Of a stretch of 64,000 nucleotides of DNA, positions 12,300 to 64,000 are shown one piece after another; the stretch's first letter is position 1; every line of letters starts with the position of its first letter. Source of the stretch: Parcubacteria bacterium C7867-006 (GTDB lineage: Bacteria > Patescibacteriota > Minisyncoccia > Phycocordibacterales > DATDWN01); assembly GCA_001189155.1 (NCBI GenBank), contig LFCP01000001.1, positions 147,779-211,778 of the forward strand, given 5' to 3'. The notes beneath the pieces are model-generated. The model was not told where the DNA came from. It was given only the letters and a program-made list of their open reading frames with translations, and did no database searches. The position numbers and the translations under genes were made by a program.

Positions 12300-12350
12300 A
12301 TGTTTAGTTTAACAAATACTTTAGCTTTTCCATATAACAGAGTTAACAGA

Positions 12351-12380
12351 CTTGACGTTCTGGCTACAAAAGGTGTAGTA
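12351..12380 (+). promoter_or_regulatory. Sigma70-like promoter of GC-rich cassette A
   Basis: TTGACG (12351-56), an 18-nt spacer, then TAGTAT (12375-80). Confidence 0.5.
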
Positions 12381-12397
12381 TTTTACCCGGAGGCACG

Positions 12398-12617
12398 CAT
12401 GAGTACTGTGAAGAATATCTCTCACACACCAAACAAACACCAGGCTACCGCACAGCCCATTCGCCGAATCGTTTGTCCAGTCTGTCACATCAGCCAGCCG
12501 GACATTCGCCAGACGAAGTGTCAGAGCTGTGGTCGGTTGCTTCCGGCTCGGCCTGGCGTAGTGACTGCACCTGTTCCGTCCAAGCGGTGGTTCGGGGGGA
12601 TCGCTCCCTCCAGGTAG
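12398..12617 (+). CDS. Small zinc-ribbon protein (GC-rich cassette A)
   Basis: GGAGG (12388-92) lies 5 nt before the ATG. Product is MSTVKNISHTPNKHQATAQPIRRIVCPVCHISQPDIRQTKCQSCGRLLPARPG..., with a CPxC...CxxC zinc-ribbon motif. GC-rich codons sit inside an AT-rich genome. Confidence 0.55.
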
Positions 12618-12651
12618 ATATCCGCAAGACAGAATCCCACCTCGTGCAATA

Positions 12652-12728
12652 CCGCCATGGATCCCAGCCCATGGCAAAGCCCTCGTCGCTCGTCGTCGCT
12701 TGTCGTCGTCGTCCCCGTAGGGCTTTTT
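12652..12728 (+). terminator. Hairpins downstream of the cassette A gene
   Basis: gccatgg-atcccagc-ccatggc hairpin, then agccct...(CGT-rich loop)...agggct followed by ttttt. Confidence 0.4.
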
Positions 12729-12766
12729 CTATATTTGAAATTTTCTTTGTGCTATATTGATTCAGA

Positions 12767-13309
12767 ATGAAAGAATCTTTTATAGTTCAATTTTTTAAAA
12801 AGTGGAGACAAATAGGGGCCATAGCACCCAGTTCTATTTTTTTAGTTGAGGATATGCTTTCTGAGGTTGATTGGGATAGGGCATCAATAATTATTGAGTT
12901 GGGAGCAGGCAGTGGTACTTTTACAAAACAAATATTGAAAAAAATGAGACCAGAAGCAAAACTTTTTGTTTTTGAAATAGATCATGTTTTTTTAAAAAAA
13001 TTAAATAAAATTATTGATTCTAGAATAGTCATAGTCTCTGAATCGGCAGAAAACTTATCAAAGTACCTTGATGGTAAAAAAGCAGATTATGTTATATCTG
13101 GCATCCCTCTTTCAAATTTAGATAAACATGTAAAATCTGGCATTATTTATTCCGCTATGGAGAGTATGGTTTCTGGGGGTATATTTTTGCAGTTTCAGTA
13201 TTTCCCTGAATCACTAAATTTTCTAAAGAAGTATTTTGACGATGTTAAGCTTAAATTTACGTTCTTAAATACACCTCCAGCTTTTTATTACATTTGCCTA
13301 AAAAAGTAG
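12767..13309 (+). CDS. Class I SAM-dependent methyltransferase
   Basis: SAM motif I (IIIELGAGSGTFT). Confidence 0.65.
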   Translation: MKESFIVQFFKKWRQIGAIAPSSIFLVEDMLSEVDWDRASIIIELGAGSGTFTKQILKKMRPEAKLFVFEIDHVFLKKLNKIIDSRIVIVSESAENLSKYLDGKKADYVISGIPLSNLDKHVKSGIIYSAMESMVSGGIFLQFQYFPESLNFLKKYFDDVKLKFTFLNTPPAFYYICLKK

Positions 13310-29475: not shown

Positions 29476-30407
29476 TGTCTAATACTTCAAAAAATATAAT
29501 TAGTGCCCTCATTCTTCTCGGAGTGATTTTTTATTTTCGAACAACATTACAGAATTATTGGCGTTATCTAGAGAGAACATATTTCCCTTGTAAATCTCCA
29601 ATTAGTTACAGTATCGGAACATTTGATACAAGATTTGGAGTTTCAAAAGCTGATTTTCTTTCAGCTATGAAAGAAGCAGAGGCAATATGGGAAAAACCTA
29701 TTGGTAAGGATTTATTTTCTTATTCAACAGACGGAGCTTTAAAAGTAAATCTTATCTATGACACTCGTCAGGAGACAACAAAACAATTGCAGGTTATGGG
29801 TATAACATTGAAAAATGATAAAGCCACATATGATGAAGTAAAAGCAAAATACGAAACTGTTTTGGTCCAATACAATCAAGAAAAAGCAGAGTTTGAGTCT
29901 AGAGTTTCTGCTTTTGAAATACGTAAAACTACATATGAAACAGCGGTCGCACAAGCAAATAGAAGAGGTGGTGCTGATAAAACAACATATGCAAAACTGA
30001 CTGCTGAAAAAGAGTATCTGCAAAATGAAAGCGCCTCACTGGTTAATTTACAAAACCAGTTAAATAAGGATGCTAGTAATGTTAACTCTCTCGTTTCTGC
30101 ACTAAATGATTTAGCAAAAGCTCTAAATATAAATGTTAAAAATTACAATACAATAGGAGATAATCTTGGTGGTGAGTTTGACGAGGGTTTGTATAAAGTT
30201 GATGCCAATGGAGAGGAAATAGATATCTATCAGTTCGATAATAGAACAAAACTTATTAGAGTCTTGGCTCATGAGTTAGGTCACGCTTTGGGTTTGGATC
30301 ATAATGAGGATCCAAAAGCTATAATGTACAGATTAAACAACGGTGTTAATGAAAAGCTAACAAATACTGATTTGATTGAGCTGAAAAATCTGTGCGGAAT
30401 TAAATAG
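29475..30407 (+). CDS. Matrixin-like zinc metalloprotease (metzincin)
   Basis: HELGHALGLDHNEDPKAIMY (HExxHxxGxxH plus Met-turn), N-terminal TM helix, central coiled coil. Confidence 0.75.
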   Translation: MSNTSKNIISALILLGVIFYFRTTLQNYWRYLERTYFPCKSPISYSIGTFDTRFGVSKADFLSAMKEAEAIWEKPIGKDLFSYSTDGALKVNLIYDTRQETTKQLQVMGITLKNDKATYDEVKAKYETVLVQYNQEKAEFESRVSAFEIRKTTYETAVAQANRRGGADKTTYAKLTAEKEYLQNESASLVNLQNQLNKDASNVNSLVSALNDLAKALNINVKNYNTIGDNLGGEFDEGLYKVDANGEEIDIYQFDNRTKLIRVLAHELGHALGLDHNEDPKAIMYRLNNGVNEKLTNTDLIELKNLCGIK

Positions 30408-30415
30408 CTCAGATA

Positions 30416-30444
30416 TTTACTTGTATATTTTCTGATGCTAGTAT
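30416..30444 (+). promoter_or_regulatory. Sigma70-like promoter of GC-rich cassette B
   Basis: TTTACT, a 17-nt spacer, then TAGTAT. Confidence 0.4.
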
Positions 30445-30475
30445 CTTTTGGGACGTACAAACACATGGGGGGTTT

Positions 30476-30658
30476 ATGTTGTATTTGCGCGGGGTGTCTG
30501 GTCCGAGAAAGATACTCGCAACTCATCCTGAACTGAAGGAACTGCCGCCATTTGAGCGGACAGTCGCCATGATTAGGCTTCTCCGTCAGGAAGCTGAACG
30601 GCTCAAGTCGAAGAAGATCGAACAGTTCGATCGCGAAATTCCAGAATTGTTGTTCTGA
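30476..30658 (+). CDS. Small helical protein (GC-rich cassette B, 60 aa)
   Basis: GGGGGG precedes the ATG. Product is MLYLRGVSGPRKILATHPELKELPPFERTVAMIRLLRQEAERLKSKKIEQFDREIPELLF. GC-rich with its own terminator. Confidence 0.45.
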   Translation: MLYLRGVSGPRKILATHPELKELPPFERTVAMIRLLRQEAERLKSKKIEQFDREIPELLF

Positions 30659-30668
30659 ACACTCCACA

Positions 30669-30701
30669 CAGTCGGGCTTCGGCCCGACTGTTCCCGTTTT
30701 T
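30669..30701 (+). terminator. Intrinsic terminator of cassette B
   Basis: cagtcgggc-ttcg-gcccgactg (9-bp stem, UUCG loop) then ttcccgttttt. Confidence 0.7.
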
Positions 30702-30702
30702 G

Positions 30703-30773
30703 TGCGGGATACGAGAATCGAACTCGTGTCTCATCCTTGGGAAGGACGTATCATACCACTAAACTAATCCCGC
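30703..30773 (-). tRNA. tRNA-Gly (anticodon CCC), CCA not encoded
   Basis: Reverse complement is GCGGGATTAGTTTAGTGGTATGATACGTCCTTCCCAAGGATGAGACACGAGTTCGATTCTCGTATCCCGC; close to E. coli tRNA-Gly; anticodon loop TTCCCAA. Confidence 0.8.
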
Positions 30774-30844
30774 TTATCCAGGATTATATCACCGCATTCA
30801 TATTCTACAATTTTAAACTTTTATATTTTAAAAATATTGTTATA

Positions 30845-40984: not shown

Positions 40985-41013
40985 GTGAAAAGCGCCGAGT
41001 TCCGGCGCTTCAC
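40985..41013. terminator. Bidirectional hairpin between tkt and cassette C
   Basis: gtgaaaagcgccg-agtt-ccggcgcttcac. Confidence 0.5.
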
Positions 41014-41023
41014 CTCCTTTGGT

Positions 41024-41416
41024 TTAGAAATGAACGATGTTGATGTGGTTGTCGGTGAGAGTTGGGATTGCGACGTCGAGGATGGCCGGCATTGCCAGTT
41101 TGTCCATCTCGGACATCTTGATGAGTATATCTGACACACGGATCTCTCCGTTGGTTGGCAGTCCGCAGAGTGTTGAAAATTCTTTCGCTCCCCAGACTTC
41201 GAATCCAACGTAGTTTTTCTTTCCGTCTTCTTCGTGGTTCCGCCGAAGAAGAGACAGATGAGTTCCTTTGATGAACTCCTCTGTTGTAGAGCAGTCCTCA
41301 ACAATGACCGAAATCATGTCGAGTTCGTCGCTGTATGTAATACAGGGACGAAACGCCAGTCTCCCCGTGAGCCAACCCGAGAATATTTCATCTAAGGTTT
41401 GATTTTCCACATTCAC
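41024..41416 (-). CDS. Hypothetical 128-130 aa protein (GC-rich cassette C)
   Basis: Minus-strand promoter TTGAGT (complement of 41452-57), 17-nt spacer, TACAAT (complement of 41429-34); AGAGG SD; GTG start (41416, or 41410 with better SD spacing). GC-rich relative to the flanks; product MNVENQTLDEIFSGWLTGRLAFRPCITYSDELDMISVIVEDCSTTEEF... has no recognisable family. Confidence 0.5.
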   Translation of the reverse strand: MNVENQTLDEIFSGWLTGRLAFRPCITYSDELDMISVIVEDCSTTEEFIKGTHLSLLRRNHEEDGKKNYVGFEVWGAKEFSTLCGLPTNGEIRVSDILIKMSEMDKLAMPAILDVAIPTLTDNHINIVHF

Positions 41417-43400: not shown

Positions 43401-43418
43401 TGTTGTCGGAGGCTGCGC

Positions 43419-43637
43419 ATGATGGATGATGATATTCCACCGGTCACCCTTGATGAGGCTTTCGAGATCTGTCAGCGAGCGTTCGCTGGTGGTCACGTTG
43501 ACCATGAAAGGGTCCTAGACATCAAGGCCTACTGTTACGTTGATGACAACTTCGCAATCGCTCTGTATGAGAGGTTGCATCTGTCTGGGCATTTCGTTAT
43601 GTCAGCTCTGGACCGTGCCGTCTATGAAAGTCTATAG
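43419..43637 (+). CDS. Small acidic protein (GC-rich cassette D, 72 aa)
   Basis: GGAGG (43408-12) lies 6 nt before the ATG. Product is MMDDDIPPVTLDEAFEICQRAFAGGHVDHERVLDIKAYCYVDDNFAIALYERLHLSGHFVMSALDRAVYESL. Confidence 0.5.
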   Translation: MMDDDIPPVTLDEAFEICQRAFAGGHVDHERVLDIKAYCYVDDNFAIALYERLHLSGHFVMSALDRAVYESL

Positions 43638-43669
43638 ACGGCAACGGATAACAACATCTCGTCCGCACG

Positions 43670-43693
43670 AAAACTCGTCGCGGGCGAGTTTTC
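43670..43693. terminator. Bidirectional hairpin terminator of cassette D
   Basis: aaaactcgtcgcgggcgagtttt. Confidence 0.55.
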
Positions 43694-43740
43694 AATTATA
43701 TAGGGGTTGATTAATTTAGACTTTTTGTTATACTACCCGA

Positions 43741-47340: not shown

Positions 47341-47369
47341 TTGACAAATATATTATATAGTAGTATAAT
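47341..47369 (+). promoter_or_regulatory. Consensus-perfect sigma70 promoter of GC-rich cassette E
   Basis: TTGACA (47341-46), a 17-nt spacer, then TATAAT (47364-69). Confidence 0.65.
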
Positions 47370-47406
47370 TATTAAAGATCTAACAATTTCCTTGAAAGGG
47401 GAAACA

Positions 47407-47796
47407 ATGCCCTATACGAAGACCTTCGCCGTTGTTACCAGCCTTCTCGCTTTTCAGATTGCCATGATGTGGTTCGCAGTTGGTTCCACTTCTGGCGGTA
47501 ACGAGTTCAAGACTGTGACAACCCACAGCTACGACGTTCCGTTCGAAAGGTACTGCGGTTATCTGGAAGAAGTTGCCCATGGAGTCATCCAGTTCGACGG
47601 CAAGGACCCAGTGGACATCGCGTATCTTTTCTTCCGCTCATCGGTTGGGAAGCCTAGCATCCCGCGTATCATCTACGGGGACACAGAGAGACTCAGTAAG
47701 ATTGAGTCGGGTCGTCATTACGACATCGGTGTCCGTCAGTACGGTGGTGGACTAAACTTCCCACGCCGTCTTGATGTAGTCGAGTCGTGCAAGTAG
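47407..47796 (+). CDS. Secreted/membrane-anchored hypothetical protein (GC-rich cassette E, 129 aa)
   Basis: AAGGGG SD lies 5 nt before the ATG. N-terminal signal/TM helix (TKTFAVVTSLLAFQIAMMWFAVGS), GC-rich codons. Confidence 0.55.
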   Translation: MPYTKTFAVVTSLLAFQIAMMWFAVGSTSGGNEFKTVTTHSYDVPFERYCGYLEEVAHGVIQFDGKDPVDIAYLFFRSSVGKPSIPRIIYGDTERLSKIESGRHYDIGVRQYGGGLNFPRRLDVVESCK

Positions 47797-47811
47797 TAGA
47801 TCTGAGCACAA

Positions 47812-47860
47812 GTCGGTGGGTTGATCCCACCGACAGGACCACACATTTGTGTGGTTTTTT
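47812..47860 (+). terminator. Tandem hairpin terminator of cassette E
   Basis: gtcggtggg-ttgat-cccaccgac, then ccacac-attt-gtgtgg followed by tttttt. Confidence 0.7.
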
Positions 47861-47935
47861 CAAATTCAAATATGTCAAAAAACCTAAGCTCTGACTATTG
47901 CACAACATTTATGTTTCTGCTACTATATCCACCAC

Positions 47936-56838: not shown

Positions 56839-57773
56839 TGTCTAAATATCTAGTAACAGGTGGGGCGGGGTTTATTGGTTCGAATATTGTGAAAAGACTA
56901 GTCGAAGAGGGAAAGGATGTGAGAGTTTTAGATAATCTCTCTACAGGAAAGATAAAGAACATCGAGCCTTTTCTCGACAAGATAGAGTTCATTGATGGCG
57001 ACTTTACTGATATTGAAGTTGCTCGGTCTGCTGTAAAAGGCGTGGACTACGTAATACACACAGGGGCTATACCTTCTGTACCACGTTCTATTGATGATCC
57101 AGTAAAAACAAACGCATCAAATATAACCGGAACACTCAACCTCCTCATTGCTTCTCGTGATGAAAAAGTAAAACGTTTTGTGTATTCAGCTTCGTCATCT
57201 GCATATGGAGACTCACCAGTAATGCCGAAGGAAGAAACTATGCCGATAGCTCCAAAGTCTCCATATGCAATACAGAAACTAGTTGGTGAGATGTATTGTC
57301 AGAATTTTTATAAATTATTTGGATTAGAGACTGTGTGTCTACGATACTTTAATGTGTTTGGTCCCAATCAAGATCCAGAGTCTGTTTACTCCGCAGTAAT
57401 ACCTTTGTTTATTAAAAAGCTACAAAAAGGTGAGTCACCAGTTATATTTGGAGACGGACTAACTTCTAGAGATTTTACTTATGTAGATAATAATGTTGAT
57501 GCAAACCTGCGAGCGTGTGTTGCAGACTCAGCTTGTGCAGGAGAGGTTATAAACATTGCTTGTGGGTATGAGATATCACTGAACCAGTTAGTTGAGAAAA
57601 TAAACACGGAGCTTGGAACTGATATAAAACCAGAATATAAAGATGAACGAGCCGGAGATGTAAAACACTCACTAGCAGACATTTTAAAAGCAGAAAAACT
57701 TTTGGGCTACAAACCTCTAGTTAGTTTTGAAGAAGGACTCAGAAAAACAATAGAGTTTTATAAAAACAAATAA
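56838..57773 (+). CDS. NAD-dependent epimerase/dehydratase (UDP-sugar 4-epimerase-like)
   Basis: VTGGAGFIGSN Rossmann motif, YxxxK (YAIQK). Confidence 0.8.
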   Translation: MSKYLVTGGAGFIGSNIVKRLVEEGKDVRVLDNLSTGKIKNIEPFLDKIEFIDGDFTDIEVARSAVKGVDYVIHTGAIPSVPRSIDDPVKTNASNITGTLNLLIASRDEKVKRFVYSASSSAYGDSPVMPKEETMPIAPKSPYAIQKLVGEMYCQNFYKLFGLETVCLRYFNVFGPNQDPESVYSAVIPLFIKKLQKGESPVIFGDGLTSRDFTYVDNNVDANLRACVADSACAGEVINIACGYEISLNQLVEKINTELGTDIKPEYKDERAGDVKHSLADILKAEKLLGYKPLVSFEEGLRKTIEFYKNK

Positions 57774-57774
57774 A

Positions 57775-57802
57775 CAAAAAACCTCCAAATTTGGAGGTTT
57801 TT
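57775..57802. terminator. Bidirectional intrinsic terminator
   Basis: aaaaaacctccaaatttggaggtttttt. Confidence 0.75.
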
Positions 57803-57805
57803 TGT

Positions 57806-58048
57806 TTATTTAGTTTCTTCCTTCTTTGTTTCAGTATACTCCGCCTCTTTCGCTTTAGCTTCTGGGTGTTTTGGAATAATTATTGTAGCAACGATGTAAC
57901 CTAGAATTGCAGGAACAACTCCTGTCATAATTGCTAGCACTATAAAAACAAGCCGAAGAACTGTAGGATCAATATCTACATATTCACCTATACCACCTAT
58001 AACTCCAGCTAGTATTTTGTCATCTTTACTTTTATATAGCTTTCTCAT
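57806..58048 (-). CDS. PspC-domain membrane protein
   Basis: KSKDDKILAGVIGGIGEYVDIDPTVLRLVFIVLAI. Confidence 0.7.
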   Translation of the reverse strand: MRKLYKSKDDKILAGVIGGIGEYVDIDPTVLRLVFIVLAIMTGVVPAILGYIVATIIIPKHPEAKAKEAEYTETKKEETK

Positions 58049-58061
58049 TTTTTTAATTTAA

Positions 58062-59333
58062 CTATTTTTTATTAGCGATTTCTTCTTTTAACTTTGCAAG
58101 AAGTTCTTCTGCTCCCATCTGTCCTAACTGGCCCGCATCTCTTGACTCTAGGGTTACTTTGCCAGCTTCAACTTCTTTATCTCCTAGTACAATCCAATAC
58201 GGTATTTTATTTGTTTTAGCGTCACGAACTTTTGTACCAAGGTTTTCATCGGCAAGATCTATTTCAGAACGAATTCCTGCTTCAATAAGCATCTGGTTAA
58301 TTTTTTGCGCGTACTCATTATGGTTTTCTCGAACAGGAATAACTTTGACCTGAGTAGGTGATAACCATAGCGGGAAAGAGCCTTTGTAGTGTTCGATGAT
58401 AAAGGCCATCACTCTCTCGATAGCTCCGATAGATGATCGGTGTACGACAACAGCCTGTTGCTCAGAGCCATCTTTTGCTGTGTAAACAAGGTTAAATCTT
58501 TTTGGCATAACAAAGTCGTACTGAACAGTGAAAGCTGTATTTTCGATACCTCGAACATCTTTCATTTGGATGTCTATCTTTGGTCCATAGAAAGCGGCTT
58601 CGTCTTTTGCTTCGTTAAACTTTACTCCTTGTCCTTGTAGTACTTCTCTTAGAATTCCTTCAGATTTTTCCCAGGCATCATCATCTTTGTAATACTTTTT
58701 ATCATCAGCTCTGTCGCCAAGAGAAAGCCTGTACCAGAAATCCTCACCCTTTTTTAGTCCAAAAGTTCCAGCTACTTCTTCGATAAGATCTAGAACATTT
58801 TTTACTTCTTCTTTTGCTTGCTCGTCATCCGCACAGATAATGTGTGAGTCGGCAAGACAGAATGAACGTACTCGAACAAGTCCAGATAGGTTTCCAGAAG
58901 CTTCGTATCGGTAAAGTTTTGCTATCTCGGCGATACGCATAGGTAGCTCTCTATATGAGTGAGGCTTTGAAAGGTAGAGCTCAAAATGATGAGGACAAGT
59001 CATTGGTCGGAGCATAAACTCTTCGTCATCCACAACGATAGGAGAGTACATAGTGTCTTTGTAGTATGGATAGTGTCCAGACTTTTTGTACAAATCAATC
59101 TTTGCAATATCAGGAGTCGTTACGTGTTTATATCCACGTTTGATTTCTAGATCTACAACAAACCTTTCTAGTTCACGTCGTATAGTTGTACCTTTTTCGG
59201 TGTATAGTGGGAGACCTTTTCCAACTGTATCTGAGAATACAAATAATCCTAATTCCTTACCAATGACTCGGTGGTCATTTTTGTCCATCTCATTGTTTTT
59301 GTCATTTTCCATAGTAAATACAGCATACCACAA
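58062..59333 (-). CDS. thrS: Threonyl-tRNA synthetase, catalytic plus anticodon-binding domains only (no N-terminal editing domain)
   Basis: DHRVIGKELGLF, class-II motifs, C-terminal anticodon-binding domain; 423 aa. Confidence 0.8.
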   Translation of the reverse strand: MWYAVFTMENDKNNEMDKNDHRVIGKELGLFVFSDTVGKGLPLYTEKGTTIRRELERFVVDLEIKRGYKHVTTPDIAKIDLYKKSGHYPYYKDTMYSPIVVDDEEFMLRPMTCPHHFELYLSKPHSYRELPMRIAEIAKLYRYEASGNLSGLVRVRSFCLADSHIICADDEQAKEEVKNVLDLIEEVAGTFGLKKGEDFWYRLSLGDRADDKKYYKDDDAWEKSEGILREVLQGQGVKFNEAKDEAAFYGPKIDIQMKDVRGIENTAFTVQYDFVMPKRFNLVYTAKDGSEQQAVVVHRSSIGAIERVMAFIIEHYKGSFPLWLSPTQVKVIPVRENHNEYAQKINQMLIEAGIRSEIDLADENLGTKVRDAKTNKIPYWIVLGDKEVEAGKVTLESRDAGQLGQMGAEELLAKLKEEIANKK

Positions 59334-59404
59334 CTAGTAGAAAATTGAATTGTATTGACGTTTACTACTTATTATGTGAGAGTTATTTATGGAGGACCAG
59401 AAAG

Positions 59405-59608
59405 ATGAAGACTCTGAATCTCAGCCAGACTGGTCGTGCTATGGTGACGACGGCGTTGATGTACTTTCTCTTCATCGCTGTCGCGATCACACTACTCCTC
59501 AGTATCGGGACGTTGGGGTGGTACCTGTTTCTGGCCGTGGTTATCGCTTTCGCGGCCTTGAGGGCCTACAGCGACTGGGACAGGAGGAACTGGAGGGGGT
59601 TTTTCTAA
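59405..59608 (+). CDS. Small two-TM membrane protein (GC-rich cassette F, 67 aa)
   Basis: GGAGG (59391-95) lies 9 nt before the ATG. Product is MKTLNLSQTGRAMVTTALMYFLFIAVAITLLLSIGTLGWYLFLAVVIAFAALRAYSDWDRRNWRGFF. An upstream TTGACG (59355-60) may be its -35. Confidence 0.5.
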   Translation: MKTLNLSQTGRAMVTTALMYFLFIAVAITLLLSIGTLGWYLFLAVVIAFAALRAYSDWDRRNWRGFF

Positions 59609-59618
59609 TCCTTCTCCA

Positions 59619-59660
59619 TAGGGCTACCCGCGATTTCGTCGCTGGTAGCCCTTCAGCTTT
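59619..59660 (+). terminator. Intrinsic terminator of cassette F
   Basis: agggctaccc-gcgatttcgtcgc-tggtagccct followed by tcagctttt. Confidence 0.6.
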
Positions 59661-59835
59661 TATTGTGATTTTTGTCAGTGGAGGAAATAGTTTTTGAGAA
59701 ACATCCGCAGACGCCGAGCTTGGCGTTGTCAACGACCCGAGTATAACGAGGGCTCTTGACGACAAGGCGTTGAGGACAGAATGAGGCTTCCGTTGGAAGA
59801 AGCCGAATGTTTTCGAAAAACTATTTCTGAAACTT

Positions 59836-62800
59836 CTATTCCAACAATTTTACTTTATCAACCAAAATACTTTTTTCTCCATTTCTTAGAGAAAAAGTGC
59901 CTTTTATAACCACACAGCTTTCTGGTATTAATATATCTTGAAACTCTTCAAATATTTTTGGAAACGCAACTCCTTCAATTGTGTCAGTTAGATCTGATAT
60001 TTTTAAGAAAACCATTTTGTCTCCCTTTTTTGTGACGACAGGTTTTACCTCATCTATTATTCCACCAAAAACTATTGGCTGTTTTTCTTTTCCAGTTTCT
60101 TTTAATTTTTTAATATTATTTTCTCTACCTTCTAGTTTTTCTCGGAAAGATTCAAGTGGGTGTCCAGAAATATAGAGTCCAAGAAGTTCTTTTTCCCAAA
60201 GTAGTTTATCTGCAGAATTGCCGTGAGATGCTTTTTCTAAATCAATTTCTGTGACTTCTCCACTATTTATCATTCCACCGAAAAGAGAGTCTTGATCAGA
60301 TTCTTTTGCTCTTTCTTCTTTGTTAAAAGCCAACAGTCTATCTAGATTGTGAAGTAGAGTAAATCTGTATTGATCTTTGTCATCAGTATCTTTTGCTAGA
60401 GAGTCTAACGCCCCTGTTTTTATGAGGGATTCCATTGATTTTTTATTTAGGTTTTTGTCTTTTATGCGACTTAGGAAATCAGAAAGAGATTTGAATGGTC
60501 CATTTGCCTTTCTTTCGTCTATGATTGATGTGGCTATTCCTTCACCAAAATTTTTTATTGTAGAAAGTCCAAAACGGATAGTATCTATCTCCCCAGGATT
60601 TTTCGCCTTGTTTACTCCAAACCCTTCAAAAGAAAAGTTAACGTCTGGAGGAAGAACAGGTATGTTCATATGTTTACACTCACCGATTATTTCGGCAATC
60701 ATATCTGTGTCGCCAGATTCTGCTGTAAGAACAGCTGACATATATATAGCAGGGAAGTTGGCTTTCATATATGCGGTTTGATACGCGACACGTCCATAAC
60801 TCGCAGCGTGAGCTTTGTTGAAACCGTAACCCTGAAAAGGTTCAAACAAGAGCCATAGCTCTTCCGCTTTTTTCTCAGTCATTCCACCAAACTTTTGACA
60901 ACCCTCAACGAACTTCACATGTTGCTTCTTCATTTCCTCTGGGATTTTCTTTCCAACAGCTTTTCGGAATTTATCCACTTCACCCCAGTCGTAACCAGCT
61001 ATTTCAATGGCGGTATAGAGTAGGTCGTCCTGGTAAACAAGCACTCCAAAAGTTCTATCCAAAAAGTTTTTCATTTTTGGGTGTAGATATGTCACAGGTT
61101 TTTTGCCGTGCTTTCGCGCGATGTACTCGTTTATGTTATCCATCGGACCCGGTCGGTAAAGCGCCACCATCACGTTTATGTCGTGGATAGTTGTTGGCTT
61201 GAGTTCCTTCAGGGCCCGAGTCATTCCATCTCCATTTAGTTGGAAAAGTCCAATAGTTTCTCCTCGAGCCAGCATTTCAAAAGTTTTTTTATCATCTACT
61301 GGAACTGTATCCATATCAACATCTATTCCTTCTACTTTTTTTGTAATTTTTACAGCATCAGCCAATATTGATAGGTTTCTGATTCCAAGGAAGTCGAATT
61401 TTAGTAGCCCTACTCCGTCTTCACCAACAGCATGCATATCGTATTGAGTAATGATTTTGTTATCTCCTTTTGTATCGTACTGTAGTGGTACGTAGTCGGT
61501 AAGTGGAGTAGGTGAGATAACAACGCCAGCAGCGTGCACGGAGATATGGCGGGCACAACCTTCGATTTTTTTAGCCATATCAATTATTTTTTTTACGTCT
61601 TCATCGTCCGTATACATTTTTTTGAGTTCTGGATTTTCTTTTAAAGCTCTTTCGATTGTCATAGGGAATCCTTGTGCCCCCATTGGAATTGCCTTTGCAA
61701 TAGAGTCTCCAAGGCTGTATGGAAAACCAAGTGCGCGAGTTACATCACGAACAGAACCACGAGCAGCCATGGTACCGAACGTACCTATTTGAGCTACCTT
61801 ATCAATCCCATATTTTCCACGAGCATAGTCTATTACCTCGTCACGTCTGTTATCAGCAAAATCCATATCGATATCAGGAGCAGATGGTCTAGATGGATTG
61901 AGAAATCGCTCGAAAGGCAAATAGTATTCAATAGGATCTACATTTGTAATTCTAGTTAGATATGTTGTAAGGGAGCCTGCAACTGAACCTCGGATGTTTG
62001 TTAGTATTCCATGATCGTGGGCATAGTGCAGAAGATCGGACACAACGAGGAAATATGGAGCATAACCTTTATCTCTAATAACTTTTAATTCGTATTCTAA
62101 CCTCTCTATATATTCTGGAGTTTGTTTTAGATTTCTTTTTTCAAAACCTTCATACGCAATTTTTTTGAGTTCATCATCGTAAGACAAACCACTTTCAACA
62201 ATATAGTTTGGTAGGAACCATTTTCCAATAGATATTTCTAGATTACACCTATCAGCTATTTTTACTGTATTTTCTAGAGCTTCGGGTGTATCTTTGAAAA
62301 TTTTTTCAGCTTGTTTTTGAGTTATGAAAGAAAAGTCTTCATCACTTTCTTCTATTTTGTCATCATGTTGTGACTGAATAGAAAGTAGAGTTTGTCTGGC
62401 TATGCGGTCTTCTGAGCTTAGATAATAAACATCTTGAGCACCAACAATAGGTGTATTTGTATTTTTTGCAAATTGTATTATTTTTTTTGTATTTTCTTCA
62501 GTACCTTTTATTTCTGGATGGTGAGTTATTTCAAAATAAAGGTTTGGACCATCTTCGGTATCAGGAAAAGTTTTTTTATACCAAGACAACCTTTCATCTG
62601 CCTGTTCTGTATTTGAAAGTTGAAGAGATTTCGGTATGTCGCCACTCAAAGAAGGTATTATAGCAATAAGTCCCTCGTTGTATTTTTCTAAAAGTTCTCG
62701 GTCAATACGAGGTTTGTAGTAGAAACCTTCAAGATGGGCAAGAGTTACTAGCTTAATTAGATTTTTATACCCCGTATCATTTTTTGCTAGTAAGATTAGT

Positions 62801-63069
62801 CTGTATCTTTCTTTATCAATTCCAGATTGTTTATCTAGTCGGCTTCTATACGCAACATAAGCATCAATACCTATTATAGGTTTGATCTCTTTTTTCTTGC
62901 ACTTTTGGTAAAACTCTATCGCACCATATAAGTTGCAGTTATCAGTTAGAGCTATAGCAGTCTGTCCGTCTTTTACTGCTGCATCTATAAGGTCTGGGAT
63001 TTTTGGCAGAGCATTAAGTAGGGAATAATGAGAGTGGGTGTGAAGATGAATAAACTTTGAATCTGCCAT
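59836..63069 (-). CDS. dnaE: DNA polymerase III alpha subunit
   Basis: PHP domain (HLHTHSHYSLL) at the N-terminus, 1077 aa, OB-fold C-terminus. Confidence 0.9.
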   Translation of the reverse strand: MADSKFIHLHTHSHYSLLNALPKIPDLIDAAVKDGQTAIALTDNCNLYGAIEFYQKCKKKEIKPIIGIDAYVAYRSRLDKQSGIDKERYRLILLAKNDTGYKNLIKLVTLAHLEGFYYKPRIDRELLEKYNEGLIAIIPSLSGDIPKSLQLSNTEQADERLSWYKKTFPDTEDGPNLYFEITHHPEIKGTEENTKKIIQFAKNTNTPIVGAQDVYYLSSEDRIARQTLLSIQSQHDDKIEESDEDFSFITQKQAEKIFKDTPEALENTVKIADRCNLEISIGKWFLPNYIVESGLSYDDELKKIAYEGFEKRNLKQTPEYIERLEYELKVIRDKGYAPYFLVVSDLLHYAHDHGILTNIRGSVAGSLTTYLTRITNVDPIEYYLPFERFLNPSRPSAPDIDMDFADNRRDEVIDYARGKYGIDKVAQIGTFGTMAARGSVRDVTRALGFPYSLGDSIAKAIPMGAQGFPMTIERALKENPELKKMYTDDEDVKKIIDMAKKIEGCARHISVHAAGVVISPTPLTDYVPLQYDTKGDNKIITQYDMHAVGEDGVGLLKFDFLGIRNLSILADAVKITKKVEGIDVDMDTVPVDDKKTFEMLARGETIGLFQLNGDGMTRALKELKPTTIHDINVMVALYRPGPMDNINEYIARKHGKKPVTYLHPKMKNFLDRTFGVLVYQDDLLYTAIEIAGYDWGEVDKFRKAVGKKIPEEMKKQHVKFVEGCQKFGGMTEKKAEELWLLFEPFQGYGFNKAHAASYGRVAYQTAYMKANFPAIYMSAVLTAESGDTDMIAEIIGECKHMNIPVLPPDVNFSFEGFGVNKAKNPGEIDTIRFGLSTIKNFGEGIATSIIDERKANGPFKSLSDFLSRIKDKNLNKKSMESLIKTGALDSLAKDTDDKDQYRFTLLHNLDRLLAFNKEERAKESDQDSLFGGMINSGEVTEIDLEKASHGNSADKLLWEKELLGLYISGHPLESFREKLEGRENNIKKLKETGKEKQPIVFGGIIDEVKPVVTKKGDKMVFLKISDLTDTIEGVAFPKIFEEFQDILIPESCVVIKGTFSLRNGEKSILVDKVKLLE

Positions 63070-63119
63070 ATGTGCGAGTCATTATAGCACAGCCTAAAAT
63101 CAGTGATAATTAATAAAAA

Positions 63120-63148
63120 TTGACAATGTTTTAATGGTATAACATAAT
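63120..63148 (+). promoter_or_regulatory. Sigma70-like promoter of GC-rich cassette G
   Basis: TTGACA (63120-25), a 17-nt spacer, then CATAAT (63143-48). Confidence 0.55.
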
Positions 63149-63173
63149 CAAAAAAGATCATTTGCGGGGTGCT

Positions 63174-63347
63174 ATGGGAGAAATCGTTCACGAAGTCCGT
63201 TGGCAAGTTCAGAACAACAGAAAGAATCTTCTGGAGTTCGGTGCAGTAATTGTGGTAATCCTTTTCACTGTTGCCGTGATTCTAGCTCCAGTTTTTGAGT
63301 TTGCGATAGGACTCGCAGCTTATATGGAAAGGAGGTTCTGGGGGTGA
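63174..63347 (+). CDS. Small membrane protein G1 (GC-rich cassette G)
   Basis: GGGG lies before the ATG at 63174 (the track uses a TTG at 63162). Product is MGEIVHEVRWQVQNNRKNLLEFGAVIVVILFTVAVILAPVFEFAIGLAAYMERRFWG. Confidence 0.5.
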   Translation: MGEIVHEVRWQVQNNRKNLLEFGAVIVVILFTVAVILAPVFEFAIGLAAYMERRFWG

Positions 63348-63592
63348 GCTTCATACACAAGGAAAGCCAGATCGGATCGGTTGCAATCATTGTCGGGTTG
63401 GTCTTCCTAGTCGCTGTTCTTGTCGGGTTATCCTCTAGTGCTGAGGAGCCTGTTCGAGCGACACTCTTGGGGATCTGTATCGCGTTTGCGATAACAGACC
63501 TTGCTCTGGTGCCCTATGTCTTCCAGAGTTTTCTTTTTTGGTGGCAACGCCGAAAAGAAGATAAGGAAGATGAAATGAGAAGGTACTGTTGA
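63344..63592 (+). CDS. Small two-TM membrane protein G2, translationally coupled to G1
   Basis: The GTG start overlaps the G1 TGA (GTGA), and GGAGG lies 8 nt upstream. Product is MSFIHKESQIGSVAIIVGLVFLVAVLVGLSSSAEEPVRATLLGICIAFAITDLALVPYVFQSFLFWWQRRKEDKEDEMRRYC. Confidence 0.5.
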   Translation: MSFIHKESQIGSVAIIVGLVFLVAVLVGLSSSAEEPVRATLLGICIAFAITDLALVPYVFQSFLFWWQRRKEDKEDEMRRYC

Positions 63593-63607
63593 GTTACCAA
63601 GTCGTTC

Positions 63608-63644
63608 AAGGGGTCACCGTGCTGAGCACAGTGACCCCTTTTAG
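63608..63644 (+). terminator. Strong intrinsic terminator of cassette G
   Basis: aaggggtcaccgtg-ctgag-cacagtgacccctt followed by ttagt. Confidence 0.7.
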
Positions 63645-63661
63645 TATGTTAAAATCTTTGT

Positions 63662-64000
63662 ATGAAAATTGTCGGTATAGATGAAGTTGGTCGAGGACCC
63701 CTAGCTGGACCAGTTACAGTCTGTGCAGTTTCCTGTGATGAAAAAATATATAAATCTCTTTTTAAAAATAAAAATCTTCCAGCTTTAGGAAAAGATAGTA
63801 AAAAATTAAAAGAAAAAGACCGTGAATTTTATAACAAATATTTAAAAAAATTATCAAAAGAAGGGGTTATTGATTATCAGGTCGTTCACATATCAAATCT
63901 AGTAATAGATAAAAAGGGTATTTCTTATTCAATAAAAAAAGCTATACAGACTTCAATTTATAAGCTTAAAATAGACAAAAATTCAAAAATTCTTTTAGAT
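63662..64000 (+). CDS. rnhB: Ribonuclease HII (5' part; continues beyond the window)
   Basis: MKIVGIDEVGRGPLAGPVTVCAVSCDE... Confidence 0.75.
   Translation, partial: MKIVGIDEVGRGPLAGPVTVCAVSCDEKIYKSLFKNKNLPALGKDSKKLKEKDREFYNKYLKKLSKEGVIDYQVVHISNLVIDKKGISYSIKKAIQTSIYKLKIDKNSKILLD

Follow-up and report, generated by a model that had tools for sequence, protein, structure and literature searches.

What do the 592 nucleotides (nts) between dnaE and rnhB of Parcubacteria bacterium C7867-006 encode, and why do they look so different from the genes on either side? The DNA considered here is a stretch of 64,000 nts (contig LFCP01000001.1, positions 147,779 to 211,778), hereafter called the window, and all coordinates are given in its numbering. 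In it, dnaE occupies 59836-63069 on the minus strand and rnhB begins at 63662 on the plus strand. An earlier note, made from the sequence alone, had placed a cassette of two translationally coupled genes for small membrane proteins in this spacer, divergent from dnaE and upstream of rnhB, an arrangement that the coordinates bear out. We refer to it as cassette G and to its genes as G1 and G2. Comparison with relatives shows that G1 and G2 are real genes under purifying selection, encoding proteins that by prediction are of membrane type. We consider it probable, with some reserve, that cassette G is a lineage-restricted operon, a self-contained unit inserted between dnaE and rnhB, and that it specifies a small complex of two membrane proteins with an accessory, modulatory or exclusion role, comparable to the phage units known as morons.

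Conservation of G1 and G2 as genes

The window alone is no proof of coding, because shuffles of the GC-rich segment give open reading frames (ORFs) of at least 82 amino acids (aa) in 15% and of at least 57 aa in 55% of cases, and because promoter-like sites are not enriched in it (15 observed, 14.6 expected in shuffles). A genome scan with DnaE gave 80 loci, of which 74 had an RnhB match, and in all 74 rnhB is divergent from dnaE and on the same side; look-ups of family members added six loci, and a second scan, of metagenomes with the DnaE N-terminus, gave two further close relatives only. At the same site, four other species (loci L004, L166, L169 and L161-165) have a small single-span ORF followed by a G2 homologue, and the first ORF is a clear G1 homologue in L004, L166 and L169. 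In L012, a G1 homologue is followed by a different second ORF that is cut by the contig end.

Synonymous divergence (dS) of dnaE from the window is 1.15-1.76 in the relatives carrying G, and unconstrained sequence would therefore be near-randomised. Both frames are nevertheless open in five species, gaps within the ORFs are multiples of 3 nts, and GGAGG stands ahead of the first ORF in every relative. Between the window and L004, the differences at codon positions 1, 2 and 3 were 0.49, 0.24 and 0.59 for G1 (47% identity) and 0.44, 0.32 and 0.66 for G2, so that position 2 differs less than position 1 and position 1 less than position 3; position 2 was the lowest in every pair. The ratio of nonsynonymous to synonymous divergence (dN/dS) was 0.12-0.37 where dS was finite, with an exception of 1.08 for the poorly aligned first ORFs of L004 and L161, and these Nei-Gojobori (NG86) estimates can only be rough, with dS saturated and 50-85 codons to draw on. 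Identity to the window was 45-47% for G1 of L004 and L166, 27% for the doubtful first ORF of L161, and 38-43% for G2 among the relatives. A hidden Markov model (HMM) built from four G1 sequences (window, L004, L166, L169) matched the L012 protein over its full length with 18.9 bits.

These observations bear on the possibility that the segment is non-coding, being either a GC-rich or structured RNA or decaying foreign DNA in which long ORFs arise from the scarcity of stop codons. The segment is indeed GC-rich within an AT-rich genome (whole-window GC is 35.8%), ORFs as long as G2 occur in the shuffles at the rate given above, the transcript folds better than its shuffles (z = -3.66), and G2 is not annotated in the source record. 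Such a segment would hardly keep its frames open in five species together with codon periodicity, 3-nt indels and conserved ribosome-binding sites, nor give protein E-values down to 2.7e-11 against 1.84 billion proteins; Rfam offers no match to it at E <= 5, and covariation supports the terminator only. We regard a non-coding origin as scarcely credible. The spacer of the relatives, which the earlier note had named as a point to check, is not conserved non-coding DNA and encodes homologous or analogous small hydrophobic proteins.

An assembly artefact is also excluded, because a protein identical to G1 (P0006) is called on the 165.8-kb JGI contig 3300001199 J055_10000035 and a Logan contig from SRR2043728 is 100% identical across 2.4 kb.

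A transcription unit with its own promoter and terminator

The G promoter (63120-63148, plus strand) consists of TTGACA at 63120-63125, a spacer of 17 nts and CATAAT at 63143-63148, exactly as the earlier note had read it, and matches the consensus at 11 of 12 positions. It is the top-scoring site in 58000-64000 and one of three sites of at least 11/12 across the whole window. TTGACA and TAACATAAT are unchanged in the spacers of nine of ten relatives, with one base different in L003, and the form TTGACA-N17-nATAAT is kept in the relatives although dnaE dS exceeds 1. The same note had assumed that the cassette shares the dnaE promoter region, and a dnaE promoter-like site, TTATCA-17-TATAAT with an upstream TG, does lie back-to-back with the G promoter on the minus strand (63109 to 63081). 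Its -10 element (gtcATTATAgca when read on the plus strand) is kept in all close relatives and stands only about 11 nts from the dnaE ATG.

At the other end, an intrinsic terminator was found at 63610-63642 (plus strand), in which 63610-63622 pairs with 63626-63638 around a TGA loop and TTTT follows. The 12 pairs and the T-run of the hairpin described in the earlier note are there, but one internal C.A mismatch in the stem had been overlooked. Hairpin and T-run occur at the same place in 10 relatives, with compensatory changes in 5 of the 12 pairs. For the remainder of the transcript, no match was obtained from Rfam at the gathering threshold or even at E <= 5, and RNAalifold on five transcripts gave a positive covariation term with many pairs broken, the terminator alone being supported. 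L004, L166 and L169 allow a predicted pairing of the G1 start with the 3′ untranslated region, but in the window the two stretches form a direct repeat, and the pairing was rejected. Elsewhere in the window, upstream of a PspC-like gene, a sub-threshold Rfam match to Phe_leader at 57742-57807 (35 bits against a gathering threshold of 55, E 0.04) is probably noise.

The right-hand edge of the unit is formed by the extended -10 element of rnhB (TATGTTAAAAT, 63645-63664, plus strand), 6 nts ahead of the rnhB ATG at 63662, and the terminator hairpin of the inserts sits just before this motif. TGnTAAAAT is found 6-7 nts before the rnhB ATG in nearly every lineage, insert present or not, and its conservation reaches relatives with 75-85% DnaE identity. 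The rnhB start has no Shine-Dalgarno sequence in the window or at the same site in L001-L022, and, judging from the spacing of the extended -10, rnhB mRNA is probably leaderless. We envisage that the near-consensus sigma-70-type promoter would drive one bicistronic mRNA, which would end at the intrinsic terminator before the rnhB promoter is reached.

Since the unit is co-oriented with rnhB and ends 23 nts before its ATG, it might instead be a cis-regulatory leader, where translation of the small ORFs sets the read-through of the hairpin into rnhB and the peptides themselves are irrelevant. The insert-free locus L010, which has TTGACA and TATGTTAAAAT directly before rnhB, could be taken in the same sense. 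However, the leader is disfavoured, since rnhB retains a conserved extended -10 of its own in insert-bearing and insert-free loci alike, and since purifying selection acts on the protein sequences, whose conserved motifs lie far from the terminator. Moreover, the G2 stop codon lies about 17 nts before the hairpin, no conserved anti-terminator pairing is present, and the analogous unit between thrS and dnaE (island F, described below) has no downstream gene on its strand to regulate. A leader function is therefore very improbable, and we retain the reading as an autonomous operon.

The arrangement in the payload-free L010, where TTGACA is followed directly by TATGTTAAAAT, implies that the -35 of G may be the ancestral -35 of rnhB. 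A 13-nt inverted repeat, 85% complementary (63140-63152 and 63639-63651; TAACATAATCAAA and TTTTAGTATGTTA), flanks the payload; its arms are the -10 region of G and the -10 region of rnhB, both of which are kept in relatives, and it may be due to chance or be the footprint of an insertion. A repeat scan of 63050-63700 showed neither terminal nor direct repeats around the payload, and the inverted repeats were those of the terminator and the two -10 regions only.

The two proteins and their coupling

G1 (63174-63347, plus strand) runs from ATG at 63174 to TGA at 63345-63347 and encodes 57 aa. A TTG upstream, at 63162, would make it 61 aa, and the public record, in which G1 is called, uses the ATG. 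An amphipathic N-terminal part of 16-20 residues is followed by a single long hydrophobic stretch, which on the Kyte-Doolittle scale lies at residues 17-51 with a peak of 3.1. A Glu just ahead of the helix is conserved, except in the doubtful L161 sequence, which lacks it. The G1 alignment shows neither Gly-Gly nor any other conserved cleavage motif. G1 was also considered as a degenerate type IV pilin and rejected, since it has no Gly at -1 (R/K-N/E-x-x-E) and no match to Pfam N_methyl.

G2 (63344-63592, plus strand) starts with GTG at 63344, ends with TGA at 63590-63592 and encodes 82 aa. Kyte-Doolittle hydropathy gives hydrophobic stretches at residues 7-35 and 37-61, followed by a tail with charges of +6 and -5. 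The AlphaFold model, built on a four-sequence alignment, is a helical hairpin of H2-30 and H35-81 with a mean predicted local distance difference test (pLDDT) score of 73.7. Twenty columns of the G2 alignment are invariant. In helix 2, T51 and D52 are near-invariant (D is replaced by N in L166) and P57 is invariant; R70, E75, D76, R79, R80 and Y81 of the tail are conserved, forming the invariant motif R-x4-ED-x2-RRY. These residues of helix 2 and of the charged tail look like interaction surfaces. The membrane propensity expected for both products, with one helix in the 57 aa of G1 and two in the 82 aa of G2 before a charged tail, thus agrees with the hydropathy of both and with the hairpin modelled for G2. 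G1 would cross the membrane once, with its N-terminus inside, and G2 would fold as a hairpin of two helices whose ends both presumably face the cytoplasm.

The G1 stop and the G2 start overlap in GTGA at 63344-63347, and AGGAGG at 63330-63335 (plus strand), within the 3′ end of G1, precedes the GTG by 8 nts; both had been pointed out in the earlier note, which gave the latter as GGAGG. GGAGG or AGGAG also precedes the second ORF in L004, L166, L169 and L161. The junction is GTGA in the window and L004, ATGA in L012, GTGA or +2 in L166, TGAtcATG in L161 and TGAgtaGTG in L169. From the overlap, and from the position of AGGAGG inside G1, it follows that the two proteins should be made together in fixed proportion. 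They may assemble as a small heteromeric complex of the inner membrane, as suggested by the translational coupling of G2 to G1 and by the retention of a small first ORF together with G2 in five species. This first ORF is of the clear G1 type in four of the five.

A lineage-restricted family

A HMMER search with G2 on 1.84 billion representative proteins gave three true relatives (P0001-P0003, E 2.7e-11 to 5.6e-9), and the other matches were only two long, unrelated hydrophobic proteins. The same three relatives were found when a G2 profile was compared with 5.8 billion clusters. For G1 there are four entries, which are the window's own, the L161 type, the L169 type and the L002 type. Every member of the two families lies between dnaE and rnhB, and the window contains no paralogue of G1 or G2. 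A word-based search with G2 alone and a metagenome scan with the G2 pair alignment gave no matches, and HMM comparison detected no G2 homology in the 53-55-aa proteins of L020 and L001, the 71-aa protein of L002 or the 83-aa protein of L003.

Nothing above noise was obtained for G1, G2 and their relatives from Pfam or PHROGs, at E <= 1, or from PADLOC. The four-sequence G2 profile matched only helices of G-protein-coupled receptors among PDB sequences (E > 0.5), and Foldseek matches of G2 in PDB and BFVD (encapsulated ferritins, designed bundles) were generic hairpins, all with E > 0.4, and uninformative. The G2 profile found no relative in 2.9 million viral contigs, and tblastn found no match in 50,697 phage records. 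A likeness of G2 to the c-subunit hairpin of ATP synthase, with a carboxylate in helix 2, was dropped, since there is no Pfam match and helix 1 is not Gly-rich.

A holin/antiholin-like system, controlling the access of murein hydrolase or programmed lysis, was one of the likenesses raised in the earlier note, and G2 does have the gross form of a class II holin, being about 80 aa long and having a charged tail at the C-terminus behind two transmembrane helices; G2 of L004 even starts with Met-Lys-Met, which resembles a dual-start motif. The window, L161 and L166 do not have this start, however. Endolysin, spanin and phage genes are all lacking from the roughly 6 kb to either side of the unit, the neighbours being epimerase, PspC, ThrRS, DnaE, RNase HII, L32, NusB-NUDIX, RNase III and SMC, and PHROG, Pfam, BFVD and the viral and phage sequences gave no match. 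The conserved, constitutive-looking promoter is unfit for a lysis timer. We attach next to no weight to a holin function. Nor did support emerge for the bacteriocin-immunity likeness proposed in the same place: a conserved leader or double-glycine site is missing, and neither an ABC or other transporter nor a modification enzyme is encoded within about 6 kb on either side.

As to the host, DnaE of the window is 92-93% identical to that of metagenome-assembled genomes labelled Minisyncoccia, Parcubacteria or, loosely, Saccharibacteria, and 71-78% identical to that of Candidatus Zambryskibacteria. Judging from this marker, the host genome is that of a bacterium of the Candidate Phyla Radiation (CPR), of the class Paceibacteria and Zambryskibacteria-like.

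Exchange of the payload between relatives

The spacer between dnaE and rnhB measures 14 nts in L006, L007 and L036, 20-100 nts in many others and up to 3.4 kb. Within the genus-level group, a frame made of the dnaE -10, the G promoter, the terminator and the rnhB -10 is constant and its content varies. This frame contains G1 and G2 in the window, L004, L166 and L169, a doubtfully related first ORF with G2 in L161, G1 with an unrelated second ORF in L012, and a short first ORF with an unrelated two-helix ORF in L002. In L001, L020, L081 and L082 it holds one single-span protein of 53-55 aa, and in L003 an ORF of 83 aa. Selection keeps the pair across species, and yet sister species have exchanged it for different small ORFs of membrane type.

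When L161 is compared with L020 (dnaE dS 0.87), the first 83 nts are 95% identical and the last 54 nts 96%, and the interior is unalignable. Between L004 and L166, G1 has 91% identity (dS 0.40), G2 49% (dS about 2) and RnhB 69%, a mosaic that fits recombination with a breakpoint inside the unit, as far as can be read from these alignments. RnhB itself has 65-78% identity where DnaE has 92-95% (L004, L166, L161), which is unusually fast for a housekeeping enzyme, and RnhB of L166 is nearest to that of L161, whereas its DnaE is nearest to that of L004. This conflict between the relationships of rnhB and dnaE suggests that recombination may have acted across the locus.

In Paceibacteria further removed from the window, this spacer carries other contents. 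In L023, L029, L034, L038, L056, L066, L072 and L073, one to five tandem type IV pilin-like genes with GFTLIELLVV N-termini are found. The spacers of L011, L013 and L017 encode a soluble orphan family, and those of L015, L016 and L035 encode soluble orphan ORFs that are similar by eye. In about half of the larger inserts, spacer GC is above that of the locus, by about 0.1 in L015-L017 and L035. Among 169 loci, the orphan payload families keep to their own slot.

High GC3 and the seven islands

The GC content at third codon positions (GC3) of G1 plus G2 is 0.49 (0.45-0.52), compared with 0.255 +/- 0.07 for 57 long ORFs of the window; the flanking genes have 0.27 (dnaE) and 0.13 (rnhB). Because the nearby PspC-like membrane protein has a GC3 of 0.19, the excess belongs to the synonymous sites and is not a by-product of the amino-acid composition. 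GC3 of the G orthologues is 0.50-0.66 despite saturated dS, and the excess is therefore maintained and not the fading trace of a recent transfer. According to a large survey, prokaryotic orphan genes normally match the GC and GC3 of their genome, or lie lower if of viral or de novo origin (PMC11293555); the G orphans, at twice the genomic GC3 over saturated dS, contradict this usual pattern (PMC11293555). The excess could stem from a recombination hot spot with GC-biased repair or from selection acting on the mRNA, and the locus offers a concrete case for weighing GC-biased gene conversion against selection at synonymous sites.

Cassette G is the seventh of seven GC-rich islands in the window (12301-12851, 30401-30801, 41001-41401, 43401-43701, 47401-47901, 59301-59851 and 63151-63651), which have a GC of 0.48-0.58 and small orphan ORFs with GC3 of 0.45-0.76. 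No Pfam or Rfam match was found in the seven, except a tRNA-Gly at the edge of the second. BLAST between them gave no common boundary sequence or repeat, and they are scattered. Island F, in the thrS-dnaE spacer (59334-59835), has a promoter, GGAGG, a GC3-rich payload (0.76) and a terminator, laid out as in G, and its payload varies among relatives (L002, L004, L020, L001, L003, L161). Its two-helix ORF of 67 aa (59405-59608) has a homologue in L161 (E 3e-06) with a common C-terminal NWRG motif; the 102-aa frame in the public record at this island (59389-59697) is probably the wrong frame. Island E opens with the sole 12/12 sigma-70 consensus of the window, TTGACA-17-TATAAT at 47341-47369, which precedes an orphan ORF of 129 aa (region 47341-47796) with an N-terminal hydrophobic segment and a GC3 of 0.62.

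A wider proposal, which we put forward tentatively and as more doubtful than the operon itself, is that particular spacers between core genes serve in this Paceibacteria lineage as fixed 'expression slots', where promoter, terminator and the promoter of the neighbour are kept and the payload, an orphan gene or gene pair whose GC3 is roughly double the genomic value, is replaced or reshuffled from one sister species to the next. The slots in question may be those of dnaE-rnhB and thrS-dnaE, and perhaps of every one of the seven GC3-rich islands. If true, this would amount to a gene nursery or to a counterpart of phage morons in the chromosome, and frequent homologous recombination with GC-biased repair might account for its upkeep. 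Taken singly, the operon is of modest interest; more rewarding to pursue is the conserved frame, seen here at two spacers and perhaps at all seven islands, with its exchangeable GC3-rich payloads.

A possible role of the pair

Most characterised bacterial proteins of the size of G1 and G2 act by binding larger membrane proteins. By analogy with such proteins of less than 100 aa, G1 and G2 might bind and modulate a partner in the envelope rather than catalyse a reaction. The proteins evolve very fast, their alleles are mosaic and sister species have replaced the payload, all of which suggests that the role is accessory. A part in conflict or contact would be plausible, either in blocking the entry of phage DNA, as HK97 gp15 does, or at the interface between symbiont and host. 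CPR bacteria have tiny genomes and are host-attached, and the G pair is a candidate for a fast-changing envelope function such as phage entry, host contact or exclusion.

An alternative is a toxin with an immunity protein or antitoxin, where one small hydrophobic protein, for example G1 in the manner of type I toxins, damages the membrane and its co-translated partner neutralises it, serving addiction, abortive infection or competition between strains. G1 and G2 are tightly coupled, G1 is hydrophobic and shorter than 60 aa, the proteins evolve fast with turnover of the payload between sister species, the family is an orphan one without a housekeeping homologue, and the well-folded transcript (z = -3.66) is of a kind frequent in toxin mRNAs. 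However, the locus occurs once, in strict synteny, and is inherited vertically, with dN/dS of 0.1-0.35 over dS > 1.5, and it lacks the patchy, mobile distribution usual for such modules. The conserved near-consensus promoter also speaks against a toxin, as do the lack of a PADLOC match, of a DNA-binding or enzymatic domain in either protein and of any supported RNA structure beyond the terminator in the alignment. No conserved antisense promoter was seen; inspection of the sequence of 63150-63650 gave no minus-strand promoter-like site, and the five-species alignment no conserved non-coding block. We consider a toxin-immunity pair unlikely.

Several points weigh against the reading as an operon for a modulatory or excluding membrane complex. 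The function is our best guess and is drawn from analogy only; no homologue of described function and no informative fold match is available. The public gene caller left out G2, and the Shine-Dalgarno sequence of G1 is weak in the window (GGGG, 4 nts before the ATG) where relatives carry GGAGG. The first ORFs of L161 and L002 have marginal HMM similarity to G1, in the transmembrane segment only, so that G1 and G2 need not be obligate partners. To these are added the chance ORFs in the shuffles, the roughness of the dN/dS estimates and the high GC3, which is not simply that of recent foreign DNA. The gene missing from the public record, together with the probably wrong frame at island F, implies that the small-protein content of CPR genomes is undercounted in GC-rich spacers of this kind.

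Comparison with known systems

Cassette G shares features with several described systems. Type I toxins of the hok/mok kind have, like G, a short hydrophobic peptide, a GC-rich mRNA predicted to be well folded and two translationally linked frames. In contrast to hok/mok, the ORFs of G follow each other end to end without nesting, there is one syntenic copy of the locus, in which neither an antisense RNA gene nor an antisense promoter was seen, and G2 is a conserved two-helix protein and not a regulatory frame. A two-gene operon, there for a soluble toxin enzyme and a DNA-binding antitoxin, is also typical of type II toxin-antitoxin systems, and G has such an operon with an overlap, but this assignment was rejected, both G products being membrane proteins without a domain match. 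With the class II holin or pinholin S68 of phage 21, G2 has in common its size, two transmembrane helices and a highly charged C-terminus on the cytoplasmic side, but G is without a lysis cassette, phage context, conserved dual start or family match.

The small membrane-protein modulators AcrZ, MgtS, KdpF, CydX and MgrB of enterobacteria have less than 100 aa and bind larger membrane proteins. Like G1 and G2, they span the membrane once or twice and lack an enzymatic domain. As a rule each is encoded by a single gene, in many cases in or near the operon of its target, whereas G is a pair on its own, without genes for a membrane machine in its neighbourhood and without homology to them.

Integron gene cassettes resemble G in that the payload differs between close relatives and the expression context is fixed. 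They differ in that each unit of the present kind has its own promoter and the islands are scattered without a shared boundary sequence. No attC-like site, intI or cassette array was noticed, within a search limited to the repeat scan of 63050-63700 and the BLAST between islands.

A close parallel in layout is with the phage morons, which carry a promoter and a terminator of their own and a deviant GC; one of them encodes HK97 gp15, a small inner-membrane protein of superinfection exclusion (PMC3594210). The first moron described encodes a small inner-membrane protein that blocks phage DNA entry (PMC3594210). Like a moron, G is an autonomous unit of promoter, ORF and terminator, both signals being kept in relatives, its base composition is unlike that of the flanking genes, and it stands between genes that are adjacent in relatives; its predicted products, like that of HK97 gene 15, are very small proteins of the inner membrane. 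Unlike a moron, G is chromosomal among housekeeping genes, vertically inherited, confined to one locus and made of two coupled genes, and it has no sequence or fold similarity to any phage protein in the collections searched. In summary, cassette G works like a moron but is not one.

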